A DNA stretch of 63,091 nucleotides, filler included, from Reclinomonas americana ATCC 50394 (GCA_048213135.1; 15 parts of 15 records of this genome joined end to end with filler, not necessarily neighbours in it), one strand, 5' to 3'; shown: positions 16,956 through 56,500, counted from the first letter of the whole stretch. Notes: generated by a model from the sequence alone, not told the origin. A program made the numbers and translations.

Positions 16956-18758
16956 ATGACTGGGAACGGCGGCGACGTGGGGCTCTCTGGCACGACTGTG
17001 CGCTGCCCGTTGCACTCCTTAGGGTGTCCGTGGGAGGGCGGTGCAGAAGAGTACTCGCAACATCGGACAGCGTGTGGATTCTCCATATTGGAGCGCTTTC
17101 AACGAGGAGTCGATGCCACCGTGCACCACCTGCAGCGAGTTGCGTGCACGTGTATGCATGCATGAGAGGCAACGCACTGACTGTGTGTGTGTGTGTGTGT
17201 GGTGCATCAGCATGTGGAGTCGCGAGTATTGTGGTCACAAGGAGACGATGATCATGCAACGATGTCGCAGCAGGATCGCATTGCGGCTCGATCGCGGGCG
17301 ACCAGCATGGAGGCCTATGCCAAGAGCAATGCCACAGTGTCGGCCATCCATGCGCGTCTGATGGAGCTGGAGCTCGATGTGCTTCGTTTGCGCGGTCTGC
17401 AGCCTCCGTCGCCTCCGGCTCCGCCACCACCGCCACCGGAGAAGCGACTGCGTGCGGTGCAGTTGCCGGTGTTTCGGTGGACCGAGGCCGGTGATCGCGT
17501 GCGTCTCAGCGACGAGGGACGCGTGGCGAGTGGCGTCGCAGGGCCACCGGCTGGCGTCGGTACGCCCAGTTGGGCGTTTGGCGTCTTGACACAGCCGCCG
17601 TTGATGGCCGGGTACGAGTGCCGTAGGCGACTTGCCTGCAGTACCGTGTGCTCACTGTGTGTGTGCGTGTGTGTGCGTAGGACGCGGTACGAGTTTCGTG
17701 TCTTGTGGGAGCAGCAGGAGAGATTAGCTGTCACGGCAGAGTCGGCTCAACGTCCACCCGGCTTCGCGTTGGTGCCCGTCGGCAGCAACGAGGAGCTCAT
17801 TCTCATTCCGCGTGTGGTCAAGGATCGAGTGGACATCGAGGAGGAGAAGGCGCGAAAGGAGAGCCGACGACGGCGAGCGACCTCGGTTGGTGCGTATTAC
17901 TCAAAGCATATGCTTCGATATCTTGCTTACAAGAACACTCACAATTGTTGTGCGCTTGCGCAGCCAACTTGGCACACGCGCGTGCCATGCAGCAGGCGTC
18001 GGAGCAGGCGGCTCTTCGGCAACGGCGGTTAACGCATTTGCACGGTGGTGAGTGGCGTCACGCATCGTGTCGGCGGGATCCTCGCCCTCACTGCCCCCGC
18101 GCCCAGTGATGCACGATCTGACGCCAGTGGGAGACTCCGACGACGAGGACGAAGACGAAGATGGAGGCGGTCGCGGCGATGGCGAAACCGACACGGATGG
18201 GGGCAGCTACGCGCAAAAGGGTAGCACGTATCGCACCGACGCCACCACCACTCTCACTCCCTCGTCGTCGGCCGCAGGTGCGATCGTGACAGTGTGAAAA
18301 AAGTGCTTCTCGGCTTTCCCCTCTCACACACACTCGCTGCGTGCACAGGCACACCCGAACCCGGCATGACATCTGGCGCACCATTACCACCGCCACTCGA
18401 GCAGCAGTCGCCGCCAACATCACCTCGCGTCCCGCCACCCGCCGGTGCCACGCCGGGTTTCCCCTTCTCCACTGGCTGCTTTGAGGGTAACTTTTACGTC
18501 AAAGGCTGGTGGTCACAGCAGTTTCTGGTACTGTGGCCGCCACATCAGCGTCGTGCCGAGCTGACCGTCATGATTGACCGAGGCACTGGGGACTTTGCGG
18601 TGCGCGCCGAGGATCCAAACACTGGCGCGCTGATCGCAGAAAGCACTGCATCGCATTGCATCTCCACGGAACCGGGTGTCACTCTCCGTTTGGCCGCCGT
18701 GGTGCGGCAGGGTGAATCCATTCGAGTCCTCAACGGGACTCGCTACGACCTCGAGTGA
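16956..18758 (+). CDS. TRAF/SIAH-type zinc finger + coiled coil + putative SPRY/B30.2-like beta domain interrupted by an insertion
   Basis: VRCPLHSLGCPWEGGAEEYSQHRTAC zinc finger, then a helical segment and a poly-Pro linker. FRW..GDRVRLSDEGRVAS..W..TRYEFRV and ELTVMIDRGTGDFAVR..LRLAAVV resemble SPRY strands. Short GT-AG introns, e.g. 17139-17210. Confidence 0.65.
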
Positions 18759-18910
18759 AGCACTCGCTGCTCTATGTTTCACTCCACTCACATTTCTTCG
18801 TACAACAGAAACACACACACACACACATACACATATAGTTTTCGGTACACACACACACACACACACACGCACACACAGATACAAACACGTGAGCTCTCGT
18901 CGCACACGAA

Positions 18911-20858
18911 TCATAGACCGCCAGAATCGTCATAAATGTCGATGCTGGATCGTCGCAGAACCGGACCGCCACCGTAGATTTCGTGCAGGAACGTCCACAC
19001 CTGTTCACCGTCAGTGCCAACACCACCAACAACAGGGGAGCGCAAGGTAATCGCAACGCAACTTCCCGATTGATTCCACGATAGTGCGTCACTTTTTTCA
19101 GATCCTTCTTGGGTCGACCATTCGCCTGCAGGAGCTCGTCGTTTCTAATCGGTCCCGGAGGTTCGGCGCGCGTCTCTGCACGGCGGCCAAGTGCGTCAGC
19201 AACAAAAAAAGAAAGAAAGATGCGGAAATTAAATAAAAGTGCAGGGTAACCAACCTTGCAGCGCCCAATCCTTCCACTCCTGTAGCCAGCCAGCGGTAAT
19301 AATGTACCACTCGTCCGTGTCGTGCTTTCGGTCGGCGTTCATGACAAACACACGCTCATTTAGCCGCCGCTCGGCCAGCAACGCAGCGCGTGACAAGTCG
19401 TCGCCGCTGCCGTTGACTGCCATGGCCACCGTGTCGGCGGGACCCTTCTTGCCCCGTACTGTCGACGACAGAGAGCCGAGAGCCGCAGCGGCCGCCGACG
19501 ACGTTGAGGAGGCCGCCAGCGTGGTTGCACCGTTGGAGCCACGACCGACGCCGTGGTGGCGCGCCGCATTCTCCATCTCCAACATGGTCTTCTCCAGCTG
19601 TTCCACGGCACTCATCAACATTTGCGAGCGGTGCTGCTCCTCCGACAGCAGTCGCGCAGTCTTGTTATGCGCGGCTCGCTCGCGCTCCAGCTGTGAATCG
19701 CGCGAGTGAGACGGAAGCAGGTGGAATGGTGGGGCGCGACACACACGCACACACACACCTCGGTTTGCAAGCTGCGCACGACTGGCGCCGCCAGCTTGAA
19801 CGCACACTTGGCCTCGTGCTCGTCTCTGCCGCCCGCCAGCCCCTTCCACTCGCAGCCGATCTCATTCCACTCGCACGTCACTAATCGCTGCACACACTCA
19901 CTCTCCGTGTGCACCAGCAGCTGCCGGCGAGGCACCTTGGCACCACACCCGAGCGGGCAGTCGTGCAAACACTCCTGCTTGTGCGCCGCGTGATACGACG
20001 ATATCGTGCCCGTCCACGCGCATCCACTCACCCTGTGCTGCAGGCAGCGAATCTGGGCAGAGCGCAGAATCAACCTCAGTTGTCAACGCGGAGGAAATCG
20101 CCGGCACACACCGTCAAGTTCTGGTACTGTCGCTTCAGTGGCGGCTGCGGCTCGACCTGGTTGTTCACGTGCATCTCACCACATCCGCACAGATTCGAAG
20201 GCCGCTCAGTGCAGTGAACTGTCGTCGACACGCATGAGGGAGGGAGGAAGGAGGGAGGAAGGAGGGAGGAAGGAGGAGAAAATAATGACTCGATTCGGAA
20301 CATTGGCGTCGCCCGCGCTCACGCGTGCACATTGCCACCTCTCTCTCTCTCTCTCTCTTCTTCTCACATGTGGTCGACAGAGTACGCACAGTAACAGCGA
20401 CAGCACAGCGATGGAACAATGTGCGTGTGTGTGTTGTGTGGGTATATGCGCAACATTGGCACAGCAAGTGCGACTGCGCAGGAGAGCAAAGTGAGCACAC
20501 AGAGACACACACATAAGCAGCACAACCTTGTGTCACTCACCGACGTACAACACAGCACAAAGGGATCGCTGACAAGGTCCAAACACTGAGTGTATGTGTG
20601 CGCGCACGCATTCAGATCGCGCTTTCACACACAAGAGAGAGAGAGAGAGAGGAACGCAACGACAGGGCACGTGTACATGGACTCGGCGATCGACTTGGCC
20701 ACACCCTCCTGTGTGCGTGTGTGTCGCGTGTCAAGACAAGTAATATACTTGCGCGCCTATGCATTGTACACACTCACCTCCACATCATCAAAGGTCACTC
20801 GAGGTGAACGCGGTGGCAACACAGACGACGCCAGTGCGCCGTTTGCGCAAAATGCCAT
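18911..20858 (-). CDS. RING finger + TRAF zinc fingers + coiled coil + C-terminal DUSP domain protein (putative E3 ligase)
   Basis: Spliced RING: YTCPVCLDLVSDPFVLCC..HLLCQCC. TRAF fingers: CLQHRVSGCAWTG..H..EC, CPLGC..H..SEC, CEWNEIGCEWKG..H..KC. DUSP: WYIITAGWLQEWKDW..PGPIRNDELL..HYRGINREVWTFLHEIYGGGPVLRR. Stop TGA at 18911-18913. Confidence 0.82.
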
Positions 20859-21058
20859 CTCTTTCGCTCGAGTGCGCTCTCTCTCCGCACCAAAAACAAA
20901 CGATTCACACAATCCGCGTTGTTCCGAACAGAGGGGGGCGCGCGGACGCGGGACTTCTTTTTCTCTCCGTCTCTCTCTCTGTTATCTCCCTCCCTCCGTC
21001 CTCTCACATTCTTGTTCGGCGTAGTTTATGCGATAGGAGGAACGGAGATTTTGTTCTT

Positions 21059-23913
<2,855 letters not shown>

Positions 23914-24040
23914 CGTGGATGCAAGGAGGAAGCGATGAATGGACAGTCGGAGTACGTAGTCGCGAGATGATTCATTCACAGAGAGCTCACCAACAACGCA
24001 CACACGCGCGCGCACGCATACACACCACGTTCGTGAACTA

Positions 24041-27000
24041 TTACTCATCTTCCGGTGGTGGGGGTGGTGGTGGCGGAGGTTGCTGCTCGTCATCTTGGTA
24101 CGGCGGATCACCGAGCTCGCCGCGATCGAAGCGATCCACCGGCCAGTACATGGTGATGAGCATGCGACTCATGTATCGACGACCACACAGGTTCGTCTGT
24201 GCGCGTTGTGCATCCTGCTCGTTCGCGAACCGAATGTACACCTGTGCAGAGGGAGCAGAGTCAATCGAGGTAGTCGACAAGTCGCTCTCTTCCCTTCCCT
24301 CCCAGCCACCAAACCTTGCCAAGACCGGGAACTTCGGGCTCCGATCGGTAGCCGTCGCGCATGCGCTTAATCTGCTGCTCTCGCATGCGCTTCTGCTGTC
24401 GGATCTGCTCCAGCGCCTGTGCGACAATGGGATTGTCTCGGCGCCCAACAGGCATGGGGAAGTCGTCCTCCGGCTCCTCGTCCTCCTGCGGGCGACCACC
24501 TCGCATCTCCTCCTCCCGTCGCTTTCGTTCCTCTCTGCGCGTGGCACCAATACACACAAGGATGTGAGAGACGAGTGGAGAATCGGTACGAGACAAACAT
24601 AAAAGGGCGTAACTGTTCCGCGCGGAAACGCTCCACTTCATCGTCGGATGGCGGCTTCGGCACCACCACATCCAACACCGAGCCAAAACGCGAGGCCTCG
24701 TCCCGAATGTCCTCCACCACACTCAGACGGAACTCCTCGTCCTTCAAGTCGGTGACATTGACTGCATTCAGCAGCACCAACACTGGAGTCGGCTGCAGTG
24801 CATTGGCTGCGGAGGGGACGGGAAACTTCATCAATCAACTGCGCCTCTACACCACCACAGTCAACAACGCGGACACAGTAGCACTCACCAATGTTGCCCG
24901 ACAGCGACGAAATGACCACCTGCACCGGCTGCTGCATGTTCAAGAAATCTAAACAGGCCGCGCAAGAGCAATGTCAGCAGCATGTCAATCAACGAAATGT
25001 CGAGCGTAGCACGACACGCAACGTTCCGCCTTGATGTCTTCGGGGTGGCTGCCGAAAGCACCAGGGGCTCCCACCACAGCACCACCGAGCGGCATCAAGC
25101 CAGAGGCGGCGGCATTCTGCGATCACGACGAGGGTCAGGCAGGAGGAGAAAGTAAAGAGAGGCGTGGCATGGAAAGAGCGTACCCGCAATCCACTCTGTG
25201 CCCGTTGCACCTGCAGCGTCTTGCCACCGAGCTGCACACCATTCAGCTGACTGCACACCACCTCCGTCAACGACTCGTCGACGAACTCGCAGAATGCGTA
25301 GCCCTGCACACCGGGTGAGAATGAACAAAGGAAAGAAACAGAGGTCTGTGGTGCATTGCGCACCTTGGAGTTGCCGGTGGCCATATCGCGGCACAGATTG
25401 AAACCCTTGAGCGGTCCAAATGTCTGCAGCAGTGTCCGCAACTCGTCGTCATTGATGCTAGACGCCAGCTGGCCAATAAAGATCTTGTTCGGCGTGTCGG
25501 GCACATTGGTGCTGATCACACCGGGGATGTAGGGCACACTCTGCACGTGCCATGGGAAATCAGTTCTCAGTACATGCGCAGCAACTATGGTCACTTGAGA
25601 GCATCCGTGACGTACCACACCGCCGCCTTCTGTGATGCCTGGAATCGGCTTGAAATTGTTTGGTCGTCGCACCTTCAGCTGGGTGCCCTGCAAGCGCATC
25701 AACCCACAAATGTCAGCAAAACACACTTATTCGTCTTCATGAGCAGGCCAACCAACCACAGCAGACCTCATAGTGAATGCCGTCCAGAGCCAGCGCCGCA
25801 GTGCAATCGTAGGGATCGGCAAACTCCACGAAAGCAAACGACTTGTCGGCCACCACCTGGGCGGCCACAATCGGCTGGTCGACTCGGCGCGGAACATTCT
25901 GGCTCACCATCTGCGCATTGAAAAACAGCACCAGCTCCTCCTACAAATGGTGGCATGATAACACACACTATTAGGCGGCGGCGGCGATGTGAAGGAGAAC
26001 GAAAGAGGGACGTCGCGACGCAACTGGTGTGGTGTACGGAGCAATACCGCCAACATACAACCGCTTCGCTTGCCTCATCGTGGCCTCGTCGACACCAGGC
26101 GGCAGATTCATGGCCGACGCGGCAACTTGGGCGGCCAGCACTGCACAGAACACAAGAAGTGAACTTCACAGCCACGGCAACGACAACGAGAGATAAGAGA
26201 CACGCAACAGTGCGTCTTGTTGAATCCCATGCCCGGCAGCGGTCCGGAGCTGAATCCAGTTGGTCGGCCAGCACCGAAACCGGCAGACGGCGCTGTGTCC
26301 CACAAACTGCGACGATTGGCACTGCAACAAACAAGAGAAAACACACACGTTGTCAGCTTCGAGCTGGTCACCGGAATGGAGAAACACAGTAACACACACA
26401 CACCGCTTGCGCGCAGGAGAGTCGCCACCCGACGGCGATGCACGGCGGCCTCCTCGATCGCGATCTCTATTCATCAACGACAGATGAGCGCGACTGCAAA
26501 AAAAAAACACACGCAACACACTCATGCACGCAACGGCGACGGGCTGCGATGCCGACGCTCGCGTCCACGATCCCGATCACCACGATCTCTGTCGCGGTCG
26601 CGGTCACGGTCGCGATCCCTGTCCCTGTAATCGCGATCCCTATCACGGTCGCGGTCCCGGTCGCGGCTACTGCCATGGCGATCGCGATCGCGGTCTCGAT
26701 CACGGTCCCGATCGCGACTGCGATCTCCGCCTCTGCTGCTGCTGCCACTGCTGTACCGTGAATCCTCACGATGCCCACCATAGCCATCATCTGCACAGGC
26801 GCACAACGGCAGTGAGTGCTGTGCGAAAAAGACAAGGATCGGGCACATATTACAATCGCCGACCTCGACCCGATCGGTATGATCCACGATCGTCGCCACC
26901 CGCGCCTCCATGGTAGGCTGGCGGTGGCGGTGCTGGTCCCTCAAACTGTGGTGCACCTCCATCGTACTGCTGCGGAGGAGGAGCAGCGTACCCCTGTGCG

Positions 27001-27542
27001 TGTGTGCGCGCGTGAGTGTAAGGAGTGGAAATGACGCACTCGCACGCCCGTGGAGACGCAACAGGGTCGTAGTATCCACTGCCGGGTGGCGGTGCATGTG
27101 GGCCCTCGGCGGCGTGTGCATACGGGTCGCCCGACGACGACGGAGGCGGGGCTGGTGGCCCCTCATAGTACTGCACAATGGAGTGAGTGATGGAGAATAT
27201 GATTGAGCTGTCACCCTCTCTATCTCTCCGCGACAGAGCAGACAACTGAGTGTGTGTGCGAGAGAGAGGGGAGAAGAGAGGGCACGCAGAGGAACAAGGC
27301 GGCAACATTGACCTGGCCATCACACACACACACACACAGACAGGCAGACGCCCCGCCAGCTGCTTCCTCTCCGACGACACCACATCATGCACATGCACAC
27401 ACGCCACCACAACAACCACCACACGCTCTTCTTCCTTCAGACACGCACACAAGACAGAGACAATGCAATCGCATAACCCTCCCCGCTGCATTACCAACGC
27501 ATTCCCATCACCATGCACGGGTAGACACACCTGATAAGACAT
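24041..27542 (-). CDS. U2AF2: Splicing factor U2AF large subunit (U2AF65)
   Basis: RD/RS-rich region and ULM RSLWDTAPSAGF. RRM1: RQAKRLYVGGI..KSFAFVEF..ALALDGI. RRM2: STNVPDTPNKIFIGQL..FNLCRDMATGNSKGYAFCEF. UHM: VLVLLNAV..VEDIRDEASRFG..GLGKVYIRF. Start MSYQ at 27542 is tentative. Confidence 0.93.
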
Positions 27543-27631
27543 CCGTGCCTCGTGAACGAGTAGAGCGGGATAGGAGCGAAGGAGGTGAGTCAGCGTTTGT
27601 CCACGTGCCGCCCTCGCGCAAAAACACACAG

Positions 27632-30600
27632 ATGGTTGACTTCCGAAGCGCCGCCGACGCACAAGCATACGTGTTACTGCGCGCGGGAGTCGGCATCCGA
27701 TTCGTCGTCTACGAGGTAAACAAGAAGAAGAAACAAGGAGGAAGAGATCGCTGTATGTTTTTTCCGGACGCACTCATGATTTCATTGTGTGAAGGCCGTG
27801 CTGGCGACGAGAGACGACGAGCGATCACCGCTACAGTTGCGCCACGTACACAGTGAGCGATCGAGTGCGGCGAGCAAGGCCGGTGGCGATGATAATGAGC
27901 TGTTTTCGGCCATGCGACAGTGGATGAGCGATGAGCAGGTTCGGAAGACAGAGAGAGAGAGTCGATCGATCGTCCATGTTCATCACTGTCGTTTTTCTTT
28001 GAAACACACAAAACACACACACAGGCGTTGTTCGTGGCGGTGCGAATGGCGTTGCTGGATCGCGGTGGTGTGCGGGCCAAGTACGGTTCGTCGCTGGTTG
28101 GTTGTTGGTCTGTCATCACTCTCGCTCACTCATTCTTCTCTTCACCGTTGCAGTGGTGATCTCATGGATCGGATCACAAGTCGCATCCGCGGTGCGCGAT
28201 GCGGTGAGGCATCATCGCAGCGGTGGCGTTGCGCAGCTGCTGTATGGAGCGCATGTGAGCTTTGAGGCCAACGAACTGTGTGAAATCAGCAGCGAAGGTT
28301 TCGTCGCCTTCTCACTGCACACTCGCGGCCTCCCTGCCTCTTCACTTACACATACGAGCTGTAGACATTACGCGTCGGTTGCTGGAGAACTCGGCCGCAG
28401 GGTCGCCGTTGGTGAGCGGATCGCGGTCGCCAGTCGTTCCTCGGTCGCCAGTAGTGCCGGTGCCGGTGCGAGGCACGGTGACTGTGCGTGCGAATTCACC
28501 GTTCCGTCGCACGCGTGTGTCGCTCGAGAGGCCGCCGTCGGCCACCGTTCGCAGCACCATCTCACAGCACGATCGCGACAGCGCAGCAGGCAGACGCCGA
28601 CCAGCGGTGCGTGTGTGTGTTTTCTTCCGATTTGCAACACAGCTCGTGGATCTCACAGTGTGTACTGCTTGCTGCTGCTGTTACGTAGTCTGCCGTCAAT
28701 CCCAGGCGCGACTTTCAGCCTGTCACGTTTGACTTGAGTCAAGTTGCGTGCGCGCGTGTACCCAGTGCGCGGCGTGAGGTCTCATTGTGCTTACGGTGGT
28801 GCGCGTCAGGCAAGTACGTGCGACTCGGAGGTCGCCTCGCAAGAGTCGCGCGATCTCGACGAGGACGAGTACGTGATGGTGGACGGCGACGACGACCCCA
28901 GGCCTGCCGTGTCGGTGCGTGGAGGGGCGCGCGATGCGCAGCCAGTGGCTGGACTTGCGTTAGCGGCGTCGAATTCGGTGAGTCTTTGTGTCATCTCCGA
29001 GTGGATACTCGCTGATTCACACCATGTTGCAACACAGCAGAGGAAACTGGTGGAATCAGAAGCAGTTTCGTCGTGCTACAGGTAGCTCCAGTTGTCGTGC
29101 CACTCAATAGTCGTCTTGTGCTTGCAGACTGCGGTACTTCTGGCCGGCGTCGGCAGCAATCACGTCGACGTTGCGTCTTTCTCTCGCACAGCGTCGCTGT
29201 GTTTGCTTAGCACTCACTACTCCTCGATTTGTGTGCGACGCAGTCACCGCGCCTGTTCGGTCAAAGCCCCGCACCACTGCCGGTTGCCATGGCCAATGGT
29301 GCCTCGACGAATCACATCACACCATCAACGACGCCGCTTGCCGATGCCTTTGTGGACTCGGAGCCACCGACCGTGCAGCTGCCGGCAGTCACTGACGACA
29401 TTGACGATCGGCGACCGGTGACACCTCCAAAGAGCGTGGCAGTCGTCGCAGTAGCCGCTGATGAAGCGGTGGTGACAATGGAGCTCGAGGCCGGCGATTC
29501 GGTCGCAGCGGCACCGATCGCCATGACTCCTCAACCTCCCATGTCGCCCAAGCCATCGCGGCTACCACCACGGCCAGTGCGGTCGCCAACAGCGGTGTCG
29601 GCGTCGGCGGAGGATGCTGCGACCATGACTGCTGCGGAAACAGCGCCACCACCAGTATCACCACGAAAACCGACTTCGTCACCTCGACACCTCACACAAA
29701 AGCACGTGACCACCACCGCTGCGGCGCCACCACCTCCACCTCTACCACCACCGGCGCCACCAGTACAGCAGCAGCAGCAAGAGCAGCAGCAAGAGCAACA
29801 ACAACAACAACAACAACAAGAACACCAACAGGACCAGGAGCAAGATCAACAACAGTGCTCGCACGTGGAGGAAGAGCAGGTTGTGATGTCGAATTCCGTG
29901 AGCGAGGAGGAGGCGAAAGAGGCCGAGCTGGTCGCCTTCCCACCGACGCTGATGATCACGCCAGAGGCCGAGATCGACGCCGTGCCGCCGCTGGCGATCG
30001 GACTGATTGGACGTGTTGTCGGCGATGCGTTGGGCGTGATCAGTGCGGCTCCGCCGACAGAGGTCGCACCGGTCGCTGCAACCGTTGCCGTTGTTGCACC
30101 AGCGACTCCCGTCGTGGAGACTCGCTCGTCGCCACCTTCGACTCGGCGCGTGCGCTTCAGCGACGAAGCGCACCCCAGTGTCCAGGCGCGCCCTCGCGAC
30201 GACGACAGTGATTTGCTCTGCGGCATCTCATTGGTGTCACGTGTCATTGCCGGCGCGGTTGAGACGACTGCATTGGCAGAAGCGCCTGCCCCGGTGCCGG
30301 TTAGCGGCAGTGGCATGCTGGTGTCGCGCATTCTTGCCGGTGCAGTGGAGAGCGTGGCACATGACACAGCGGCGCCTGCCCACCCGCAAGGCGATCAAGC
30401 ATCTACGCCTCTGCCGGTAAAGGTTCGCGCCGACGACATTAGCTTTGTGGTCTCTCGACTGGTGACGAGCACGGTGGCGAAGAGCATGGCCGCTGTCGAG
30501 GTCGCTGTGCCCGTGTCCGTACCATCCAGTCCGTCAACACCACCACCACCACCAGCAGCAGTAGCAGCAGCACCCAAATATGCCTCGCCCCAGCCGGCAC

Positions 30601-34203: not shown

Positions 34204-35402
34204 CTACACGAGACCTGCCGACTTGGCCGCCTGCAGCACGTGTCTTCGCGTCTCCTCCCACTCGCGGAATGGTGCGCTCGTCTGGAAGCGACGCAACGAG
34301 TCAGTCGCCAGCCTGCAGTCATTACGGCAGTTTTTTTCAGTGAATCAGGCAGTCACAAAACAGAGAAGCCATGACGAAACAGTCGCGCCACGGAGCGAGC
34401 CGCTGCAGAGAACGGCGTGACAATGTCTTCGGCCAGGATGCTACTGGCCGCGGCCGAACGGACACTCGTCGAATCCGGCATACCCTTGACAGGGTCGACA
34501 GACACGTGCAGCCACACCTCGGTCGATGCGGAGGAGGTGCGCAGTTTGGTCAAATCGAGAACGACTCGCCCCGGGAGGTTCAGCTGCGAGAGGTGCGGTG
34601 AGAGTGGAGTCTTGCCGCGCACGCACACGAGGCGGAGCGGATGCACCTCAAATGGCGCCCCCTCGACAAAGAAATCCATGTACAGCGACTCGCCAGCATC
34701 CTGCAAATGGCGCGCCGCATGGTTGCTGTTGTGGTGCCACTGCTCCTGATGCAAGTAGCGACGTGCCATGGTGACGTAGTCGTGTAGTCGAAGCAGGAAG
34801 AGTAGGTTCTCCGAGCTGTACTCGCGGACGGTCGCTCTGCTCGTGATGGTCAGTCGACACGGTCGGTGATGAGGATGCACGATCGCACGCAACTGCCGAA
34901 AGAGTTCTCGGAGCTCGAGGTTGTCGAGAACATCGTGGAGGGATGAGCCTGGCAGCAGCGACTGCCTCGACGTGTTAGCACTCACTGGCGCGCGCGTACA
35001 AGCACGAGACGCAACGTGAGTAATCTCTTCTTCCGACTCTTTCGCACCGGCGTCGAATGGTTCGCGCCACGGCCACGACGTCACCGTGGCCAGCAGCATG
35101 CCAATGGCCAGCAGCTGTGGCGAGAGGAAATAGAAGACCACAAGGCCGTGCTTCTCCGAGGAAAGCGACAATGCCAGCACCGTCACGTGCACGGGTATGA
35201 GCACGCTGTGGTCGCCCGACAAATTAGTGACAGAACAGCTGGCTGCAGCGGAGATCGCTAAAACACAGCCGAACCACAACAGAAAGCCCTGCTTGATGCG
35301 ATACTCGGTGGCCACCTGTCGCCACACACACACAGCGATTGTCAGCATATCGCAGTTGGCCCCCACCACTTAGACAGCAGAGGGGTGCGAACCCTCAGCA
35401 CA
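34204..35402 (-). CDS. Membrane RGS protein (C-terminal TM helices + RGS domain; 7TM-RGS type), 5' partial
   Basis: Hydrophobic helices after EYRIKQG, then an RGS box: LHDVLDNLELRELFRQ..REYSSENLLFL..LYMDFFVEGAPFELNLP..LATDSLRRFQTSAPF. Stop TAG at 34204-34206. Confidence 0.85.
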
Positions 35403-38500: not shown

Positions 38501-38847
38501 CTGTGAGTGAGACGCAACGGATATGCGGGCTCCAAGAGCAGCGAGTTTGAAGTAAAGTGACCGGTCTCCGTAAAAGTGAATGCTCCAGCGGCGCCCGCAT
38601 CACTCGACGACACAGAGCTGAAGCGCGCACATGGTTGCGTGTCCACACTGCCTAATGACGATGTCTGTTGTTGCTGTTGCTGTTGTTGTTGAGGAGGTAA
38701 TGAGGAGGCAGGAGCGGGTGCGGGTGTTGATCGAGGAGGTTGTTGCTGTGCGAGTGTGAGCACTGCTGCTGCAGTGATGGTGATGGTGACTGCCACGAGC
38801 AGGAGGACGAGCAGTGGTAGTGGTCGTCGTCGACGCGTGACGATCAT
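35503..38847 (-). CDS. Surface/secreted protein A: signal peptide, proprotein-convertase P-like domain, Cys-bearing Ig/IPT-like units, H-type-lectin-like domains; 3' end open at the gap
   Basis: Signal MIVTRRRRPLPLLVLLLVAV. P-domain-like TVTLLNGTGG..DFRPAESFAAFDGLEVGGRWTLNVAD..HFWKISF. Lectin-like RTYEDLVKFEPPF..VPEVLLGISAL..DTRIYC and VMFPVEFHTSPVMAVSL. Exon-by-exon paralogy with gene B. Confidence 0.72.
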
Positions 38848-39719
38848 CGCGTGTGATGTCAGAGTGAGAAGTGCAATGGATTTTTCACTTTGCTGCGCGC
38901 TTCAATTTGAGAGTTACCCCCCTTTTGTCGTGCTGGGTGGTGACTCTGCGTGTGCGTGTGTATGGCGTGCTCTTCGTGTGTCTCCGAGTTTCTCCGTGAT
39001 TGTGCGTGCATTCGTCACGTTGGTTCACTCATCGCCATGCCACTGTATTAGTGTCCGGTTGGCGATGCAACTGAATTTGCATAGTGACTCGACGCATTAG
39101 GCATGTGGGAGCGGCGCGGGCCCTCGCAGTCTCTCTGCGACTCAAATTGGCAATGCTGGCATTCGCCTACCCAAGTCCGTATGCCAGAGCTGCAAGTTCA
39201 TCATCGCGATTGTTTTGCAAGCACCGGCGCCGGCTTTATTTGGTCGCTCTTGGCGTTCCTCAAATCAGAACTGGTGATGCTGGCTGCATGCTCCTGCAGC
39301 TGTGCTGCCCAAGAGAATGCCGTCGCTCAGCCTGTGTGACACAAAGTTACCGTGGTAATATTCGACCAATACGCAGTTTTCCTGGCAGAAAATCGCCGAC
39401 CACATACGCGTTTCATATCGCACCCTGCTGGGGTACCGTGTGTTTTCATTGGCCAACAACATCTACTCTGAATTTTTCGAGTGAAGGAGAGAGAGAGAGA
39501 GAGGAAGGAAAAACACGATGCGAAGAAAACGCAGAGGCACACACAACCACCACCAGCACCACCGCCACCGCCGACCCACCTATGGGAAACTTTTTGCCGC
39601 AACACAAGTTGACATGATGATACGAATACAAAACAAGACAAGAGAAACAGGGAGAGAAAACACACACACAGACACAAATAAGACTTGGCTCGACGCAGTC
39701 TGTTCTTGCCGGCGCTGGC

Positions 39720-42700
39720 TCAAGCAAGAATGCCAAACACGGCCCACTGGTAGTCAATCTGTGTAATGGCGGCGGCCGAGTTCGAGGCCAAGCAGATATC
39801 CATGGCGGCGGCGAGCGGGTTGCTCACAGTCAGCGTGAAGTCGAGGCCACTGTTGTTGGCAGAGTTGATCTGCCAGCCCAGCGAGAACACCACGTACTGC
39901 GGGGCCGGTGTGGTCAACACAGTCTGGAACGAGTGCGTGTTGCAGGAAACCGAGCTGATCGAAGACTGGCCACCCTGCAGCGCGTACTGGCCGCTGGTGG
40001 TGGTCGACGGGAATGCGAACCACGAGAACGCGAGGCGCGAAGCGCGAGAGTCGTTCAACAGGGCAGCACTGCGCGAGCAAGCACGTCAGAAAAACAACGG
40101 AAGGAATGACTGGAAAAAATCCCAACATTGCAACGCACCGGAAGTTGAAGTTGCGCGGTGAGGCGGTGGTGACCTTGCTTGAGAAAGCGTTGGCCGTTTC
40201 CGAGAAAATCCACAAGTGGCGCAGGCCGACAATGATCGACGGCGTGGCGGAGTAGTCCACCGGGAAGCCAATCGAGTCGTCTTGCTCACGAGAGGCCGGC
40301 ACCGAGGCAGGCAGGCGCTCCCAATCGGCGCGGCCGCGCGAGCCAAAGGTGATGTTGCCGGTCGACGACACACGGCCCAGAGAGGCCGGTGAGTAGTGCG
40401 CCAGCACGTACACGCGGAAGCGGTTGATCTTGGTGGTTCTGCGAGAAGAGCGTAAGAGACCAAATACGCTCATCTTTCTTTCAAGGGTGGAAAACCCCCC
40501 CACTCACCCGTATGTGACGCAGCGGCAGCGCATGTCAATGGTGGTGACCGACACGGCCGAGCAGTACAGACGAGTGTCGGACGGGGCGACCACACCAAGA
40601 GCCGACAGACCGACAATAACGTCGGGGACGCGCGCAAACGGCGTGGAGAACGTCACCGTCTCCTCGTACGTGCGCACACCAGTGCCAGAGGCGAACTGCG
40701 ACTCCGTGAACGCATCGTCCGCCGGGGTGAGCTCGGCCGCCACGGCAGCTGCACACGCAAACGCATACGGCATAAACATCACCCTCCTTTTGCGTGCACA
40801 CACTCGAGAAAATAGACGCAACTGCTGCCGGCGGTGACGATGCCGTTGGGGACCTCGGCCCAGGTGGCCTGGTCGTTGAGGAGGTAGCACACCTGCAATG
40901 ACTTGCCTTGCGTGACAGTCATCTTGAAGGAGAAGCGGCGGCAGTAGTTCTGGTCGCTGCACGACGACAGGCCCACAGTCGAGTCGACGGTGGAGTCGAC
41001 GGTCAGGGCGCCAGTGAGAGCCGAGGCGATCACATTGGTCGGGGCGCAGGTGCTGCCGAGTGGCACCACCGAGTACGAGGTGATTTCGGTGAAGAACTGG
41101 CCAAACACGTGCACCAGCGACTCCACATTGATCGGGATGGCATTCGGCGTCACGCCAGTCGGGGCCGGTTGGTTCGGGTCTGTGCTCACACAAACGACCA
41201 CCAATGAGCGGGAGGGAGACCATGCACACAACAGTAGACACGGCAAACGCACCGCCAATCGACATGGTGGCAATGTTCACGTACTCGGCAGTGGAGGTGA
41301 AGCGAGCGCACAGCGGAATGTTCACTTGCGGGCTAGCAAAGGTGACGACGCCGCTGACAATGGCGCGAGTGGCAAAGTACTACAACATCACCCCCGCGAC
41401 GTCAGCTCACCGACACGAATCTCTTTGGCGACAGCCTCTGCTATGCTGCTACTCACCAGCGCAATGTAGTTCGAGTCGAACGAGGCAAACGTGATCGACG
41501 TGTTGCTGACGGCAGTCGGCGCCGTGCATCCGTTGGACGACAGAATGAGAGCATCGGCGTCACCGGAGATGTTGGGCAAGTTGGCGGCGCGGATCACCAC
41601 CTTGGACTTGATCAGACCCGAGGGCACCGAGAGCGGCGACACGGTCGGGGCCACTAAAGCGGAGATAAATGTGAGTACGTGATATCGTCCCTTTTTCCCT
41701 TCAGTGTCCACAAGGTGACGCAACAAATGTTGATCGGAGAACCGCTGAGCGGCATCCAGTAGCCGCCAGAGTTCACACCCGGGTTGGTGCAGAGGTTCAG
41801 CTGCACGGCAGCTGAGGTACGAGCCAGCGTGTTGAACGTCAGGGTGAACTGGAACAGCTGGGTGTTCGAGTTAAGCAGCGGGTTGCCAGCAGTGTAGCCG
41901 ACCGGAATGGCGGCCTCGCCAGACAGCGGAGTCTTGCAGGAGGTGTCGGTGAAGAACTGCAGGGCCACCTGCGGGTAGGTCGGGCTCGGGGGAATCTACC
42001 ACAAGAGGAACACGAATGTGAGGAACCGAGCTGCGGCGACAGTGGAAAAGGGGGTGGAGCGACGAAACAATGCCCTCCATGCCAATGGCCAGCGACGCGT
42101 CACCAACGACCAGCGACACTTGCGCTCTGTAGCAAAATTAGAAGTGAGCGACATGCGATGACAGAGTGGGTGCTTGCAGGCGGGCGACGCAACGGTGAAA
42201 AGATGCACCAGTCCTGGTACTGAATGACCCACTGGCGAAGGCTGGAGGTGAGCGCAGCATTGTTGCTGCCGTTGCCGTCGGTGGCAGTGACAGTCCAGCT
42301 GAAGCGCGGAGAGAGAAGAACGAATGAGTGAGATGGTGGAGACAGTTAAAAAAGAAGAGCCAACATGAGACAACGAAACTCTCCCGCGAGGGCAGTGTTG
42401 ACAAATGTCGACAGCGACTGCGCCGGCTTGAAATCAAACTGGGTGGAGCCAATGCCGATGACATTGCTGTCACCATCGCGAGCGGCCCAGGAGTTGTCGA
42501 CGCTCTGAATGTTGCCCGACATGCCATTGTTCCAGAACCACGCCTTGATGCCCGTCAGCGACGCGCCACCAATGTGCTCGAACAGCGTAACCGTCTGTGC
42601 ACAGTGCATAAGCGTACAAGGAGAGACAGAGAGGAAGATATGCACATGTAGCAGGTCCGTACCCGTCCCGAGTGAGTCAGAGTCACGGAAAAGTCGGAGA

Positions 42701-43135
42701 GAACGTTGCCCTTGAGATCTGCACCATTTTCCGCACAAAGTAAGAACCACAATGAAAAACGCAAGAGAATGCTGCACAAACACACACACTCACCGACGTA
42801 GATGTAGAGACCATCGGCAGAGGTGACTTGCACAGTGCTGTGAGTGTGTGTAACGGATGAATATTTCGTTACATCACACGCGCGCGTGCCACACACACAC
42901 TCAACTTGGTGTTGGGGACCGTAATGGTCTTGCTGCCCGAGAACGTGGGTGCCACCAGGTCCACTCGTCCTGAGTAGAACACACCCGAGCCGTCACTGTT
43001 GTACGACGACACAGGGCGGCAATCAATGGCCAACACCGCCAACGGCAGCACAACAAGTGCCAGTGCCACTGCAGCAATGCATGCTGATGTTGATGTCCTT
43101 GGTGAACGGCGTCCCATCTTGTTTCCTCTCTCCAC
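39720..43135 (-). CDS. Secreted protein B, a complete paralog of A: signal peptide, P-like domain, Ig/IPT-like units, three H-type-lectin-like domains, no TM
   Basis: Signal ACIAAVALALVVLPLAVLA. P-domain-like VTLTHSGR..TVTLFEHIGG..DFKPAQSLSTFVNTALAG-SWTVTATD..LRQWVIQY. Lectin-like GTGVRTYEETVTFSTPFARVPDVIVGLSAL and IGFPVDYSATPSIIVGL. Ends IDYQWAVFGILA* at 39720. Confidence 0.75.
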
Positions 43136-43473: not shown

Positions 43474-45960
43474 ATGCGGAGCCTGGCACTGGTTGCGCTC
43501 TCGCTGCTGCTGCTGCTCTGCGCGGCAAGCACTTGCTCAGCGTACTACACGTTGCGTCACCACAAATAAACGGGGGGCAAGCGGAGAGGACAATTTCCGA
43601 CGCACTCACACGCCCACTCTCCGCTCTTCTCAGTGAGGAGTTCCACACGGCAGAGGACACCGAGTCGCTTCTGCAACGCGTGTTTGGCGCCACGCCGCAG
43701 TCACCGACGCAGAATCCGATGGACTGGTTCACTGAGCGTGTTCGTGAATGGGTGGCGTGGGCGCGCGGCTACCGCGCGGCCACTGCGGCCATGAGCACGC
43801 CCACTGATGCAGCGTATGACCCGCGTCGTGCATCAGTGCTGCTGAACGAGGACGAGATGAATGATGAAGGTAATGATGATTGAGATGTATTGATCACTCA
43901 CACTTGCACGCGCACTTTGTTGGTGGTGGTGATGTTGTTGTTGTTCATCTTCTCCTCATATATGCGCGCGTGTGTGTGTGTGTGTGTCACTTGGGGGCTG
44001 TTGTGGAGAGTGGGTGATTTTTTTTAGACAGACACTGATTCCGATGTGCGCGCAGAGGTGAAGCGTCGCAAGGTCGCCGACTTTATCAGCAAGCTGCATA
44101 TGGCCGACGGATCTCCGGTGTGTCACTCGTGTAAATTGTGTTCACAGTGTGTGTTGTCGCTCATTGCCAAGAAAGACTCCGCTGCCCGGCCGCTTCTACC
44201 AATTCATTCCCGAGTACCTGGGCGGGGCGGTGCCTGGGCAGACTCTGAGCTGGTCCACGCCCTGCTTCAAGTCGAACAACGCCACCCTGACGGTCGGCAG
44301 CGCCATGCCCGACGACGGGCGCGATGTGAATAACGGCGGGTTTGAGCTGAGCATCACTGCCGGCTCCGCCACGTCCACGTTCTGCAGCGACTTTTACCTG
44401 CTGGCCACCAGCGAGGGCTTCCACTTGAAGACGATTGCGCTGCACGGACAGCATGTCATTCACTGGGAGTGGAGCAAGAAGGCGTCGGCCGGCGATCACA
44501 CGTGGTTGCAGAATCACGGCGTGGCGGTGCTGCGCTTCATGGGCACCGAGGCGGAGATGGCCGAGACTCTGGCTGCCACCGCCGAGCTCTTTGTGGGTGT
44601 GGCGGAGGGACCCGGCGTCCCCAAGATCATCATGGATGCGAACCGCGAGGCACGTCATCCCTGTCTGCCTCTCTCTCTCTCTCTCATTATTCAAATGCAG
44701 TTCGTCCTCATCAAAAAATCGTTGTCGCACAGTTCCTCGATCAGTACGTCAACTACCCGCTGGTGGAGCGCACCATCACCAAGGTGGAGCTGGACGAGAG
44801 TCTGATTCACTCGGGCGATTGGATTGGCGTGCTGCGTCTTGACGGACTCGAGTTGCGTGCCCCACCCGCTAATCATCTCCTCTGCATTCTTTCTACGCCA
44901 TGCCCACTCGGCTCTGCGTACAGTCCGGTGGAGGCGTGGGGCTCGGGCGCGCACACTGGCCACTTTACGATGGCGCTGTGGATCGACGGCGAGCTGAATG
45001 TGGTCGAGAGTACGAGCAACACCTCGTACTGGCCCGACAACAAGATTCAGCGCCACCCCTACAAGCGCTGGTTGCAGCTGGCCGAGGCCGCCGACATGAA
45101 CGTGATTCACGTGCCGCTGTCGGCGGAGTCGCGGGCGATCTTTAACGAGACCGCCGTGGTGGAGTGGTTCAAGAACGAGGTCGAGGGAGTGGTACGTTGT
45201 GAGGGCAAGGCGGGATATTCCTTGTCCTCTTTTGCACTTGAGTGCTGACTGCTGCGCTCTTACAGCCGTACGGGTGTGTGATTTGTTTTCGCTCCGCCGG
45301 CGAATGATCTTTGTCTTGCTCCTCTCACTTTCTTGCTTTTGCATTCTGCTCCCCCCCAGTTTCCACAATTACGTGAGTCGTGTTGCTCGCTTTTGATCAT
45401 CATGTGGTATTCATTTCTAACATTATCCCTCTCCCTCTCTCACTGCAGTTCTTGTTGCGTCAAGCATGTGCCTCGTTTTGTGTGTATGCTGCTCGCTGCT
45501 CACCCACTGCATTCCTTCAATCGCTCCGTCGACCAACACAGTGGTTTGTTTTTGCGTTGATTGTGCGACCATGTGCCCCTGTCGACTAACGAAGCTCGTG
45601 CCTATCACACAGGCTGGATCGATACGCCCGACAAGAACCTGCCGGCGCCGCTCATCATGAAGACGCTGCAGATCCTTCTTGGCCTCGTGTCGTTTCGTGC
45701 TCAGAATGTGCTTCCCCCCGCACAGTGGGGGCGATTACTGACTGGATGATGATGATGAACGCGACACAGTCACATCAGCCCGGCCACATCGCACCAGATG
45801 TGGGAGGAGGCGTTCAACTTCCGCCTCTTTGGCAATCTCAGCCAGAACCTCACCACCATGCAGATCTACGCGGAGATGGACAAGCGCGGCCTCGACTTTG
45901 GCTCCCTCATGTCCATGGTCGAGCAGGACAAGTGGATGTACAGCGACGGACCGTCGATGG
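43474..45960 (+). CDS. Secreted protein of a conserved uncharacterised plant/protist family with a permuted papain-like (NlpC/P60, YiiX-like) layout; 3' partial
   Basis: Signal MRSLALVALSLLLLLCAASTCSA. Motifs WSTPCF, CSDFYLLAT, IHSGDWIGVLRLDGLDP..WGSGAHTGH, FNETA, FHNY..WIDT, MWEEAFNFRL, EQDKWMYSDGPSM. His precedes the expected catalytic Cys, as in permuted NlpC/P60 enzymes (family call from memory). Confidence 0.7.
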
Positions 45961-46121
45961 GTGTGTGTGTGTTCCCCCCACCTGTTGTGCATATTTCCAC
46001 TCATCCGGTGCCTGACATTTTNNNNNNNNNNNNNNNNNNNNNNNNNNNNNNNNNNNNNNNNNNNNTTAATTAATTAANNNNNNNNNNNNNNNNNNNNNNN
46101 NNNNNNNNNNNNNNNNNNNNN

Positions 46122-47938: not shown

Positions 47939-48029
<91 letters not shown>

Positions 48030-51933: not shown

Positions 51934-51975
<42 letters not shown>

Positions 51976-52217
51976 ACTCGTACGTACGTACGACGTACGT
52001 ACGTACGTACGACGACGACGNNNNNNNNNNNNNNNNNNNNNNNNNNNNNNNNNNNNNNNNNNNNTTAATTAATTAANNNNNNNNNNNNNNNNNNNNNNNN
52101 NNNNNNNNNNNNNNNNNNNNGTACGAAGTGTAGTGCGTCGTCTACCGTACGGTTCGTTCGTACGACGGTCGTACCCGTACCGTCGTCACACGACACTCTC
52201 GCCACCTACGACGTCGC

Positions 52218-52282
<65 letters not shown>

Positions 52283-53500: not shown

Positions 53501-56500
53501 NNNNNNNNNNNNNNNNNNNNNNNNNNNNNNNNNNNNNNNNNNTTAATTAATTAANNNNNNNNNNNNNNNNNNNNNNNNNNNNNNNNNNNNNNNNNNNNCC
53601 TTGCGTCGGTGAGTACTTGTGTGTGTGCCTTGCACCAGGTGCTGTGCAGATGAGCTGAATTCTTGCGTGTGTGTGGGTTTGTGCGTGCAGGGCTCGTACA
53701 TGGTGTGCGTGGAGTTCCAAGCGGGATGGGGTTTCCAGCGAGTTGGCACGGCCATCTTGTATGCGAGTTGCGTGCGGGCGTGCGTTGACTAGAGATCGTT
53801 GGAGCGTATTGGCGCGCTGATCCCCCTATTTTGCACAGCGTCGACGACAACGTTCACGCCGACGGTGGTGATGCCGACTGACACGAATCCACAGCTTGTT
53901 GTAGCTGGTGTGGGGTTCGATAGTGGGCGAGTGGCGTTTCGAGCGCAGCTGCAAGTTGGCGGCGTGTCATCGTGTTCGGGTGCGGGCACGTTGGTGTCAT
54001 TCGGAGTGGACAGTGTGTCGGCCGGTCGCAACTCAGCCAGCATCTCTGTGATGGGCATGGTGGCAACTGGGCGATACACACTGTGTGTGCTGTTTGCGTC
54101 GACGTACCCGAGCTGGAGTGTGGTGGGGGTGTTGCGAGTTCGTTGCGTCTGCTGCTTTCGCAATGATGAAAGACATGGGATGATGGGAATGCAGGACAGC
54201 AGCTAATTGTTGTATGTCTGCGTGTCTGTGTGCAGCATCTGTGACCTCATTTTTCGGCACCGTGATTCTGGCCAACGACGGAACGGCGTCGTTGACGCTG
54301 ACGGGATTTTCGATGGCGCTGACGGATGATGTGCGAGTGCAGACTTCGGGACCATGTATGGGTGGCGGCACTGTTGTGACGCCGGCGAGTATTGATGCGT
54401 CGTTCGCAAGCATGGTGGTGACAGTGGGAAGTGTGCCTGCGGCCAATTGTTGCGTGCTGTTCAAATCGATGCTGTGATTGTCGAGCGTGATTGATGACGG
54501 GTGTGCATGTGGATGCAGACATCATTTGCATGCGGTTTGCTCCGACACTGTCGTGGGTGCAAGTTGTGCCGGCAACTACGCTCGTGGCTGGTGAGTGTTT
54601 TCTTATGCCCTTGTTGTGTTTCCTGCCAAGTGCACCCTTTCATCACACTGTATTCTTTTGGCGCGATGCAGCATCGGCGACTGGATACGCGCCTGGTGCT
54701 TTGCTGGCGCGGAACAGCAATGTGCAAGTGTCAGTGAGTGGATTCGGGTTGAGCTCGTCGTCGATTGTGCGGGTGGAGTCGGGTGCGTCGTGCACCGTGG
54801 CGGGTGGAGGAGTGCTGGCCACATCGCTGACACCAGCGGGCGACACGCTGAGCACTGTGGCGAGTGGATTTGCACCGAGTGGCTTGACCGCAGGGACTGC
54901 ATCTGTGTGTGTTGCAGTGGGCATGGGTGTCGGTGTTGACACATTTCTGAAAGTGGGCGCATCGATTGACATTGGTATGGAGCTCGAGAGAATGTGCTTG
55001 TGTCGTCTTTTGTCGTCGCCGTTGCAGCTGACATGAATTCCTCTGATATGTTTGCACAGTGGATGTGTCGTCGCTGGCGCCGTCGGTGATTGTGGCGGAT
55101 GGAGTGGCGAAGCGAATCACGGTGTCGGGCAGCAACTTGTCGAGTGCGCGGGACGTGTTCAAGATCATCAGTCGCACTGGCGCATGTGCCACCGACAGTG
55201 CGCTTGCTGGCAGCACGGCATCGACGACGTTGTCGGGAATGGCGGCACCGGCCACGTCAGTGTTTGTGGATGTGGGTGTACCGGCCACGGAGAGCACAGT
55301 GCAACAAAAGTTGTGTGTGCAGCTCGGCGTCGGCACAGTGTGGTACGAGTTCATGAGTGCCGGCAGCTCGAATGTGTCGACGGGTGAGTGCTGCTGCTGC
55401 TGTCCTTGCGTATGAAGTGCGGCTCTGACTTCGTGTGTGTGTGTGCTTGGTCAGTGCGGGTGACGAGCTTTGTTCCGACGATTCTGCCGACGCTGGTTGG
55501 AGGCGGCGGCGTGACGACACTGAGCGGCAGTGTGCTGCAGGCGGGCGACAGTGTGGTGATTGTTGCGACAACGACGGCGTGCACGGCGACGGCACAAGCG
55601 ACGAGTGTGAGTGTGAGTCAGAGCATGTCGACCGACGGCAGCGGCAATGCGACGATGCTTGTGTCGCCGACTGGCGGTGCGCCGGTGGCGGTGGCGGGAT
55701 ATGTGAAGATGTGTTATCGACCGAGTGGGGCGACGCAGTATGGCGAAGTGGCGTCGCAGCTGCAGTTGTTGTTTGGTGCGTGCTGTTTTCCCCTTTGCCA
55801 TGCTGTGTTCGTTGAGTGTGTGACGCGCATTCTCATACTTGTGTTCGTGTTCGTGTGTGATGTCTACTTGCAGTGTCTGCCGCCAGTCGTGTTCCACCGG
55901 TGTTTGTGATGGACGGAATCACCAAGGCGTTTACGATCAGTGGGCAGCAGTTGAACGACTCGCGCGACTCGCTCAAACTGATCGTGGCCAGCGATGTGTG
56001 TGCGACGGGCAGCAGCATTGGCACGACAGTGGTGACGAGCAATGGTGGTGCCGGGTCGATGTCGGTGACTGTGGATGTGACGATGGCGACGAGTGTGGCG
56101 GCGAGCAGCGGGCTCATGTTTCGGCTGTGCATTCGGCACTCGCTGGTCGCACAAAGTGGGTACGAGTGGTATCCGTTTGATGTGGCGAGCTCTGGCGATG
56201 TCGGAGGAGGTGATTGCTTGTTCACTGCTTGGTAGTCTCTTTGCATTCGTTGTGTTTGTCTCACATCACATTCTCGTCAACACAGTGACAATGGACATTG
56301 TGCGGCCGGCGGTGCTGCCGCTGATCAACATTGTGGATGTGGCGGCGGGCGAGTGGAACAGTGTGACGATGGAGGTGGAGGGGAATGGACTCGGTCTGGC
56401 AAACTCGGATGTGCGCATTGTCAGTTCGGCGACTGGGTGCACGGCAGCTGGTGCTCCGATGGCTGCATTTGCGACGATGACGCCGGCGGCGGTGGTGAAC

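Follow-up and report, generated by a model that had tools for sequence, protein, structure and literature searches.

The window considered here is a stretch of 63,091 nucleotides (nt), filler included, from Reclinomonas americana ATCC 50394 (GCA_048213135.1), and its subject is the 5' splice sites (donors) of the predicted genes, many of which begin their introns with GTTGCGT. The window is made up of 15 contig pieces of a draft assembly which are joined via 14 identical linkers of the form N44-TTAATTAATTAA-N44, located at 1935-2034, 4900-4999, 11430-11529 and 11 other places, each of which places stops in all six frames. The window is therefore a chain of contig pieces, and pieces that lie side by side may not adjoin in the genome. 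The G+C content is 49-63% and short introns are abundant. Its genes include a tandem pair of diverged paralogues on the minus strand, A (35504..39038, 15 exons, cut at a gap) and B (39720..43117, which has 13 exons and encodes an H-type lectin domain), a conserved gene without a Pfam family on the plus strand (43932..46019) and a U2AF65-like gene on the minus strand (24041..27542). The few open reading frame (ORF) matches to Pfam comprise the GPAT/acyltransferase, RRM, TMEM260-like, H-type lectin, cation efflux, MAD and TRAF zinc finger families, with DUSP as a further, weak match. The TMEM260 homologues share 28-38% identity and stem from widely scattered eukaryotes; a metagenome scan returned no relatives of the TMEM260 exon, and a protein word-index search with one exon of paralogue B and one of the U2AF gene gave no match in a collection that apparently lacks the proteins encoded by the window itself.

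Gene models were built with a dynamic-programming parser which scores codon log-odds, acceptor and branch matrices and intron length. A parse that is blind to the donor beyond its GT yields 109 introns in which GTTGCG is the top donor hexamer (17 of 109), and a parse with an iteratively trained first-order donor model yields 161 introns, including 30 with GTTGCGT and six with GTTTCGT. Because positions +1 and +2 are constant, a first-order model is unable to link the last exon base (-1) with the intron from +3 onward. Models that overlapped a better model on the opposite strand were dropped, leaving 146 introns; 11 donors that had overrun into downstream GT-rich sequence were reset to an earlier in-frame GT by a rule blind to the -1 base, and the model of a gene with a RING part was corrected by hand. 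A filter for introns of 45-200 nt with flanking exons of at least 15 nt left 127 introns, the set to which the donor counts below refer. Plain ORF-bridging enumeration had been dropped for its high noise, a training loop blind to the donor motif for over-prediction (487 introns), and the re-assignment of ambiguous donors by donor score alone for pushing true donors into GT runs.

When both strands are counted, the window contains GTTGCGT 42 times, compared to a mean of 15.80 (standard deviation 4.10, maximum 29) in 100 dinucleotide-preserving shuffles, none of which reaches 42. The copies are preceded by T in 16 cases, by C in 13, by A in 10 and by G in three, and most of them have a CTSAC-like branch motif and a CAG or TAG 55-95 nt downstream. 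The gene models use 29 of the 42 as donors (-1 base A 8, C 9, T 12, G 0), and no other donor heptamer of the window is as common. The remaining copies fall into predicted exons (6), into introns (2) or outside the models (5), and two that are labelled as exonic, at 20660 and 53259, are true donors which the parser had overrun. When the 127 introns are sorted by the position of the next GT, 56 carry it at +5/+6 (GTnnGT, here called ordinary donors) and 39 have T at +3 and the GT at +6/+7 (GTTnnGT, here called shifted donors). The ordinary donors are GTGCGT (18), GTGAGT (15), GTGTGT (9), GTATGT (4), GTTCGT (3), GTACGT (3), GTTTGT (2), GTCCGT (1) and GTTGGT (1), and the shifted ones GTTGCGT (28), GTTTCGT (7), GTTGAGT (2), GTTTGGT (1) and GTTGTGT (1). 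The rest of the set has G at +5 only (11 introns, 10 with G at -1), a base other than T at +3 with GT at +6/+7 (four, two with G at -1), a donor inside a GT run (two, neither with G at -1) or some other donor (15, seven with G at -1). Introns of the GTTGCGT type are thus confirmed as a real and frequent donor class, amounting to about 30% of the predicted introns. The two strands together hold just two copies of the hexamer GTAAGT, neither of which is a predicted donor.

The two classes differ in the base that precedes them. G at -1 is present in 52 and absent from four of the ordinary donors, compared to two and 37 of the shifted donors (Fisher p=2e-19), and the unfiltered set gives 56/6 versus 2/40 (p=7e-20). 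The sequence-only reading that first drew attention to the window had claimed both the frequency of GTTGCGT donors and their co-variation with loss of the exonic G, and these counts, together with the excess over shuffles, bear it out more strongly than it had been put, GTTGCGT being the most frequent donor heptamer. Shifted donors actively avoid the G: the base composition of the codon positions concerned would predict it at 12.6 of the 39 and it is seen at two (P=4e-5). Of these two, G|GTTTCGT at 28298..28304 on the plus strand, which is without homology support, is the sole clear shifted donor predicted after G; the other, G|GTTTGGT at 24314, carries G at +5 as well and could belong to the ordinary class. 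Where T occupies +3, the donor is preceded by G in six of six cases when the GT lies at +5/+6 (GTTCGT, GTTTGT, GTTGGT) and in two of 39 when it lies at +6/+7 (p=3e-6), so that the -1 base co-varies with where the downstream GT lies and not with the T at +3. The same relationship appears in a signal-only test which uses no gene model and considers motif copies with a top-decile acceptor and branch signal downstream: G precedes 20 of 39 sites with a canonical motif (GTGAGT 6/7, GTGCGT 12/24, GTAYGT 2/8) and none of the 20 with a shifted motif (GTTGCGT 0/17, GTTTCGT 0/3).

Such a pattern could in principle arise as an artefact or by chance, if the donors had been misplaced by prediction or if GTTGCGT were the start of a repeat or introner family. 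The parser did misplace several donors (the 11 moved by rule and the one gene corrected by hand) and the models are derived from the nucleotide sequence, which lends this explanation some substance. It is opposed by the enrichment over shuffles and by the signal-only test, both of which are independent of the gene models, and by 13 shifted donors that are verified through alignments with paralogues or homologues. Among junctions verified in this way G stands at -1 in none of the 13 shifted and in 14 of 15 ordinary donors (p=7.5e-7). An origin from introners or mobile introns was rejected on an all-versus-all blastn comparison of the 127 intron bodies, which have nothing in common but microsatellites and chance words of 11-13 nt. 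It is hence very improbable that the class is an artefact.

Paralogues A and B allow a comparison at homologous introns. They are identical at 254 of 702 aligned residues (36%) and have 10 intron positions in common, all in the same phase and one of them off by a single alignment column. The 20 introns at these positions divide into nine shifted donors, none of which follows G, and 11 non-shifted donors, all of which do (p=6e-6). At alignment column 566 (phase 1) G|GTGCGT in A (36323..36328, minus strand, as for all donors of the pair) faces A|GTTGCGT in B (40816..40822), and at column 646 (phase 2) C|GTTGCGT in A (35931..35937) faces G|GTGAGT in B (40502..40507), so that donor class and -1 base switch together at two homologous positions of the same phase. 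A third position, the one that is off by a column, pairs G|GTACCGT at 37641 in A with T|GTTTCGT in B (42062..42068). The class is kept at the positions of T|GTTGCGT in A (37230..37236) and T|GTTGCGT in B (41718..41724), of T|GTTGCGT in A (37942..37948) and A|GTTTCGT in B (42373..42379), and of C|GTTGCGT in both (37769..37775 in A, 42187..42193 in B). The natural test proposed earlier for this gene pair, with its two class switches and the T|GTTGCGT donors common to both genes at 37236 and 41724, is therefore upheld by the alignment, in which the introns concerned match in phase.

The conserved gene at 43932..46019 has seven junctions which can be verified against seven homologues with identities of up to 59%. 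All seven are gapless, and their donors are, in order, A|GTTGCGT (44852), G|GTACGT, G|GTGTGT, C|GTGAGT (45373), T|GTTGCGT (45454), G|GTTTGT and C|GTTTCGT (45692). The 72-nt intron at 44852-44923, whose donor occupies 44852..44858, corresponds to a tblastn gap of exactly 24 residues with three homologues; its removal joins the split codon GA/T for the D of LDGLDP, which is kept in six of the seven aligned homologues, as anticipated by the claim that this intron restores LDGLDP. The 78-nt intron at 45692-45769 (donor 45692..45698) likewise corresponds to a tblastn gap of 26 residues with P0104 and its junction is gapless with all seven homologues. The donor T|GTTGCGT at 45454..45460 directly follows a micro-exon of 5 nt, and the spliced product ...PYGFHNYFFGWIDT matches homologues such as ...PYGYHNFLFGWVDT residue for residue. 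An exception to the trend had been named near 45372, and it is found as C|GTGAGT at 45373..45378, an ordinary donor that lacks the exonic G and whose junction HNY/F is gapless against the homologues. The gene also contains four micro-exons in a row on the plus strand, at 45266-45273 (8 nt), 45360-45372 (13 nt), 45449-45453 (5 nt) and 45542-45543 (2 nt). All four appear to be needed for the predicted product ...PYGFHNYFFGW..., which aligns residue-wise with seven homologues, and an exon of 2 nt would be remarkable. The modelled junction at 44663 is contradicted by the homologues and lies outside the filtered set: the model has an insertion of 15 residues (44644-44732, plus strand) that is absent from seven of seven homologues and may be either a real insertion or an unusual intron, and no GT-AG intron that would remove it in frame was found.

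The U2AF65-like gene, identified by matches to U2AF65 in the PDB, encodes a putative splicing factor and itself carries several GTTGCGT introns, with donors at 26534, 26208, 26024 and 25022 that pass the filters and a predicted one at 27062. The donor A|GTTGCGT at 26018..26024 (minus strand), which opens an 84-nt intron at 25941-26024, is verified by homology: residues 20-32 of the upstream exon align with residues 7-19 of 6tr0_A and residues 3-57 of the downstream exon with residues 28-82, from which it follows that the two exons abut at human U2AF65 residues 25/26 with neither gap nor overlap. The N-terminal part of this gene model is unreliable and resembles the wrong frame of a repetitive region. 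Cleavage before GUU is hence supported at the protein level by gapless junctions at 26024, 44852, 45454 and 45692 and by the nine donors at positions conserved between A and B. The junctions of the TMEM260 gene that use G/GT donors (31458, 32529, 33136) are gapless too; they were kept outside the comparison of 13 with 15 verified donors.

In every other respect the two classes resemble each other. Median intron lengths are 71 versus 72 nt (Mann-Whitney p=0.98), branch motifs of the CTSAC type (CTGAC, CTCAC) occur with both, the acceptor is CAG in 49 of 55 ordinary and 32 of 39 shifted introns, and neither phase spread nor composition distinguishes them. Both kinds are mixed inside the same genes, and shifted donors are present in nine of the 15 contig pieces. 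The two classes are, as far as these features can tell, one population of short (about 70 nt) GT-AG introns of the major spliceosome which differ only at the donor. Introns of the U12 type, with a donor consensus of RTATCCTT and the branch site TCCTTAAC, also form a second discrete donor class within the same genes. This identity was rejected for the shifted class, whose donors GTTGCGT, GTTTCGT and GTTGAGT are not of the RTATCCTT type and whose branch and acceptor sequences are those of the ordinary class.

What the two classes have in common at the donor becomes evident when they are offset by one base. All 95 donors fit the heptamer G-(G/T)-T-N-N-G-T and are cut before its first GT, and the offset profiles agree in outline: -1G of the ordinary donors corresponds to +1G of the shifted ones, +2T to +3T, +5G/+6T to +6G/+7T, and the G at ordinary +3 (41/55) to the G at shifted +4 (31/39). 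It is proposed that a single reader recognises the heptamer in a fixed register. The ordinary form would be G|GT(G/A/T)NGT, mostly G|GTGCGT or G|GTGAGT, and the second form H|GTT(G/T)CGT, mostly GTTGCGT; the spacing from the first G to the final GT would be constant in both, and the second letter of the heptamer would set the cut, which would fall one base into the heptamer when that letter is G and ahead of the whole heptamer when it is T. The 5' end of the U1 small nuclear RNA (snRNA) would bind the heptamer in one register and the catalytic spliceosome (U6, U5, Prp8) would then cut at the GU on the 5' edge of the helix, so that in the second form +1G would pair in place of -1G. This is the arrangement of the human '+1 shifted register' (Roca and Krainer 2009), in which U1 pairs displaced by one position according to PMC4856993. 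The likeness extends, in that account, to a GU followed by U at the intron start, a consensus one base deeper, +1G in place of -1G and a cut at the GU. The lineage, or one of its U1 variants, would have a U1 5' end that fits GUGCGU better than GUAAGU. In this form, in which one reader keeps a fixed register, the cut is made at the first GU and U1 departs from the textbook sequence at its 5' end, the proposal is given about an even chance of being correct.

The standard U1 5' end, in the sequence given by PMC4856993, was used to compute pairing. Read in the +1 register the 39 shifted sites form 5.05 Watson-Crick pairs on average, compared to 2.74 when read canonically, and the ordinary sites show the reverse, with 6.42 pairs in the canonical and 2.29 in the +1 register. 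The greater complementarity in the +1 register is what a shifted register should display, and so is the dispensability of -1G, whose partner C9 is taken by +1G and which is seen at two of 39 sites. A different explanation for the same geometry is that -1, +1 and +2 pair canonically, that one U, at +3 (or +2), is bulged out, and that the helix continues from GCGU onward. Human 5' splice sites with a bulge at either of these positions are described by Tan et al. 2016 (PMC4856993); bulge and asymmetric-loop registers similarly place one extra nucleotide between the GU and the downstream consensus, and by hand count the number of pairs equals that of the shifted register wherever the -1 base is not G. 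Bulge registers, however, keep the exon end canonical: -1G would add a G-C pair and should be favoured, yet it is avoided in the shifted donors of the window, where it occurs at two of 39 sites compared to 52 of 56 ordinary ones. In addition, +3 is nearly always T (39 donors versus four with another base and GT at +6/+7), which a shifted register needs for pairing with A7, whereas a bulge should accept other bases. A bulged U is for these reasons judged quite unlikely as the general explanation. Two donors at positions conserved between A and B, G|GTACCGT at 37641 and G|GTGCGGT at 38233 (both minus strand), combine -1G with GT at +6/+7 and may be donors of the bulge type.

The two halves of a 5' splice site, exonic and intronic, are able to compensate for each other, -1G for example with +5G. 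The shifted donors resemble such a case in that loss of -1G goes with a stricter intron side (+5C 35/39, +4G 31/39). Compensation in other organisms keeps +5G and +6U in place, whereas in the window everything downstream is displaced together by one base, and few ordinary donors lack -1G (4/56).

Several observations weigh against a plain shift of register on a textbook U1, whose 5' end is ACUUACCU. The best duplex over all registers with the standard U1 has a mean energy of -1.07 kcal/mol for shifted sites, compared to -2.72 for random GT sites and -7.4 for ordinary sites, and 80% of 1000 random GT sites of the window pair with the standard U1 at least as well as the shifted sites do. The validated human example of a shifted site given in PMC4856993, the oligonucleotide ACAGUCAAGUAUA, reaches -6.5 kcal/mol. 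A duplex this weak implies that the +1 register with the textbook U1 is insufficient by itself for recognition. The shifted profile is moreover not a pure translation of the ordinary one by one base: +5 is far more restricted to C (35/39) than the equivalent ordinary +4 (25/56, p=5e-6), this C being a mismatch to the standard U1, and +8 is C in 16 and G in 16 of 39 donors where the ordinary +7 is mostly G (28/55). There is no preference at shifted -1 for A, which would pair with U10 of U1. G at -2 is depleted in both classes as counted from the cut (6/56 with 17.1 expected, 5/39 with 12.2 expected), so that a part of the exon pattern follows the cleavage site and not the heptamer. A search with Rfam at gathering thresholds gave no match at all within the window, and hence neither a U1 nor a U6 gene, and the sample consists of a single 63-kb window with purpose-built gene models and 28 verified junctions.

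The poor pairing and the near-invariant +5C, which the standard U1 leaves unexplained, make an altered or a second U1 likely. By the logic of compensation the weaker class should carry optimal bases at its other positions; in the shifted donors these are +4G and +5C, which would suggest a reader that is complementary to GUGCGU and not to GUAAGU. A lineage-specific U1 could supply the duplex stability, and hypothetical U1 5' ends with changes toward GUGCGU do bind both classes well, by construction and hence as a demonstration of feasibility only. The fuller version of the proposal is a remodelled donor recognition in which the U1 5' end, or that of one of two U1 species, is matched to GUGCGU/GUUGCGU, G-K-U-G-C-G-U is read and cut before its first GU, and a two-register code is the normal state, in which -1 and register co-evolve and switch between paralogues; it is put forward tentatively, with the balance of probability against it. 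The earlier suggestion that the mammalian shifted-register mechanism operates here as a mainstream alternative thus stands for the pattern and for the excess of pairs in the +1 register, and fits poorly where it supposes the same mechanism as in mammals, given the energy of -1.07 kcal/mol and the mismatch at +5. Its other option, a variant U1 or U6, gains weight from the poor fit of the standard U1, and the mechanism would still be a matter of inference.

It could also be that GUUGCGU is read canonically by a second U1 variant with a complementary 5' end, and that the GTTGCGT introns are separate clients of this variant. The conservation of the heptamer at every position, including +5C at 35 of 39 sites, would be expected in this case, the standard U1 is no better on GTTGCGT sites than on random GT sites, and a hypothetical 5' end matched to the shifted sites gives -9.85 kcal/mol on them, which being obtained by construction speaks to feasibility only. 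Functional variant U1 snRNAs have been reported in humans (PMC3561869, PMC10870369). Separate clients of a separate U1 would, on the other hand, hardly be expected to keep the same spacing from the first G to the GT as the ordinary class and to mix freely with it within genes, and the class switches between A and B at homologous positions are simpler with one reader. The avoidance of -1G is left unexplained by a second U1, for which Rfam likewise yields no U1 match in the window, and this explanation is regarded as unlikely.

The depletion of G at -2 relative to the cut, common to both classes, would fit a cause that acts after U1, namely that U6 of this lineage (its ACAGAGA box), loop 1 of U5 or Prp8 accepts two geometries of exon end and intron start, with U1 pairing being secondary. 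There is a precedent in a study of the tandem donor of STAT3, which reports that cleavage need not be fixed by where U1 binds and that non-canonical registers are open to U6 (PMC11162779). A comparison by eye shows no obvious partner for the strongly conserved GCGT (+4 to +7) in the standard ACAGAGA box of U6, and a cause downstream of U1 is considered very unlikely.

Few features of eukaryotic gene expression are as conserved as the U1 5' end and the canonical donor register, and non-canonical registers are treated as rare. Human shifted sites carry a long A-rich match of the GUUAAGUAU type, and in this they differ from the window motif GUUGCGU, which pairs poorly with the standard U1. Shifted and bulge registers are established for rare human sites (Roca and Krainer 2009; Roca et al. 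2012), as described in PMC4856993 and PMC9311317; in the former, validated non-canonical registers are estimated at 1.5% of 201,541 human 5' splice sites, a proportion to be compared with 39 of 127 introns in the window. A paper on tunicates raises the shifted register only as a possibility. No description of GTTGCGT-type donors or of a mainstream shifted register was found among the top full-text literature matches, which cover subscription journals thinly, and a mention in an earlier genome paper is possible. The pattern is best described as what would be mainstream use of a register shift known from rare sites, that is a known kind of mechanism in altered form, and it is this use that would be new. 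If this is true, about one third of the introns would have a donor displaced by one base and would constitute a natural system in which to study how U1 binding becomes uncoupled from the choice of the cleavage site. It would equally show the co-evolution of U1, U6 and splice sites, and it would mean that the requirement for -1G can be lifted, freeing the last exon base from a constraint on coding. Genomes of this kind will be mis-annotated by gene finders that have been trained on one donor matrix, as happened with the first models of this window.

The remaining donors that the sequence-only reading had singled out are located in other genes and are present as claimed, with varying support. 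A gene with RING, TRAF zinc-finger and DUSP-like parts contains the hand-corrected donor C|GTTGCGT at 20654..20660 on the minus strand. Removal of its 75-nt intron gives CPV/CLDLVSDPFVLCCTS, the CPVC that had been expected in the RING; once the following intron (20540, G|GTGAGT) is removed as well, a RING-like Cys/His pattern is complete, as judged by eye. A|GTTGCGT at 19056..19062 (minus strand) opens a 62-nt intron whose removal in the gene model gives NRE/VW, in line with the proposed NREVW; residues 1-19 of the last exon of this gene match Pfam DUSP positions 57-75 weakly (E=0.0036, below the curated cut-off). At 17139..17145 on the plus strand A|GTTGCGT begins a 72-nt intron (17139-17210) that is supported by continuity of frame, as its removal joins an open frame to the frame of the downstream gene; the site lies upstream of the predicted start. 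A|GTTGCGT at 34887..34893 (minus strand, 59-nt intron) is part of a gene model which offers no alternative in-frame GT, and C|GTTGCGT at 43551 (plus strand, 83-nt intron) belongs to a low-scoring model.

Two long single exons on the minus strand, 11530-13869 (2340 nt) and 7557-10270 (2714 nt), encode repetitive sequence rich in Ala, Ser, Thr and Pro and have no Pfam match. The MAD1-like gene at 2905-4899, also on the minus strand and recognised by the Pfam family MAD, has the predicted donors G|GTGCAC (twice), G|GTGGCT and G|GTGACG, which represent either a further, weak type of donor or errors of the model.

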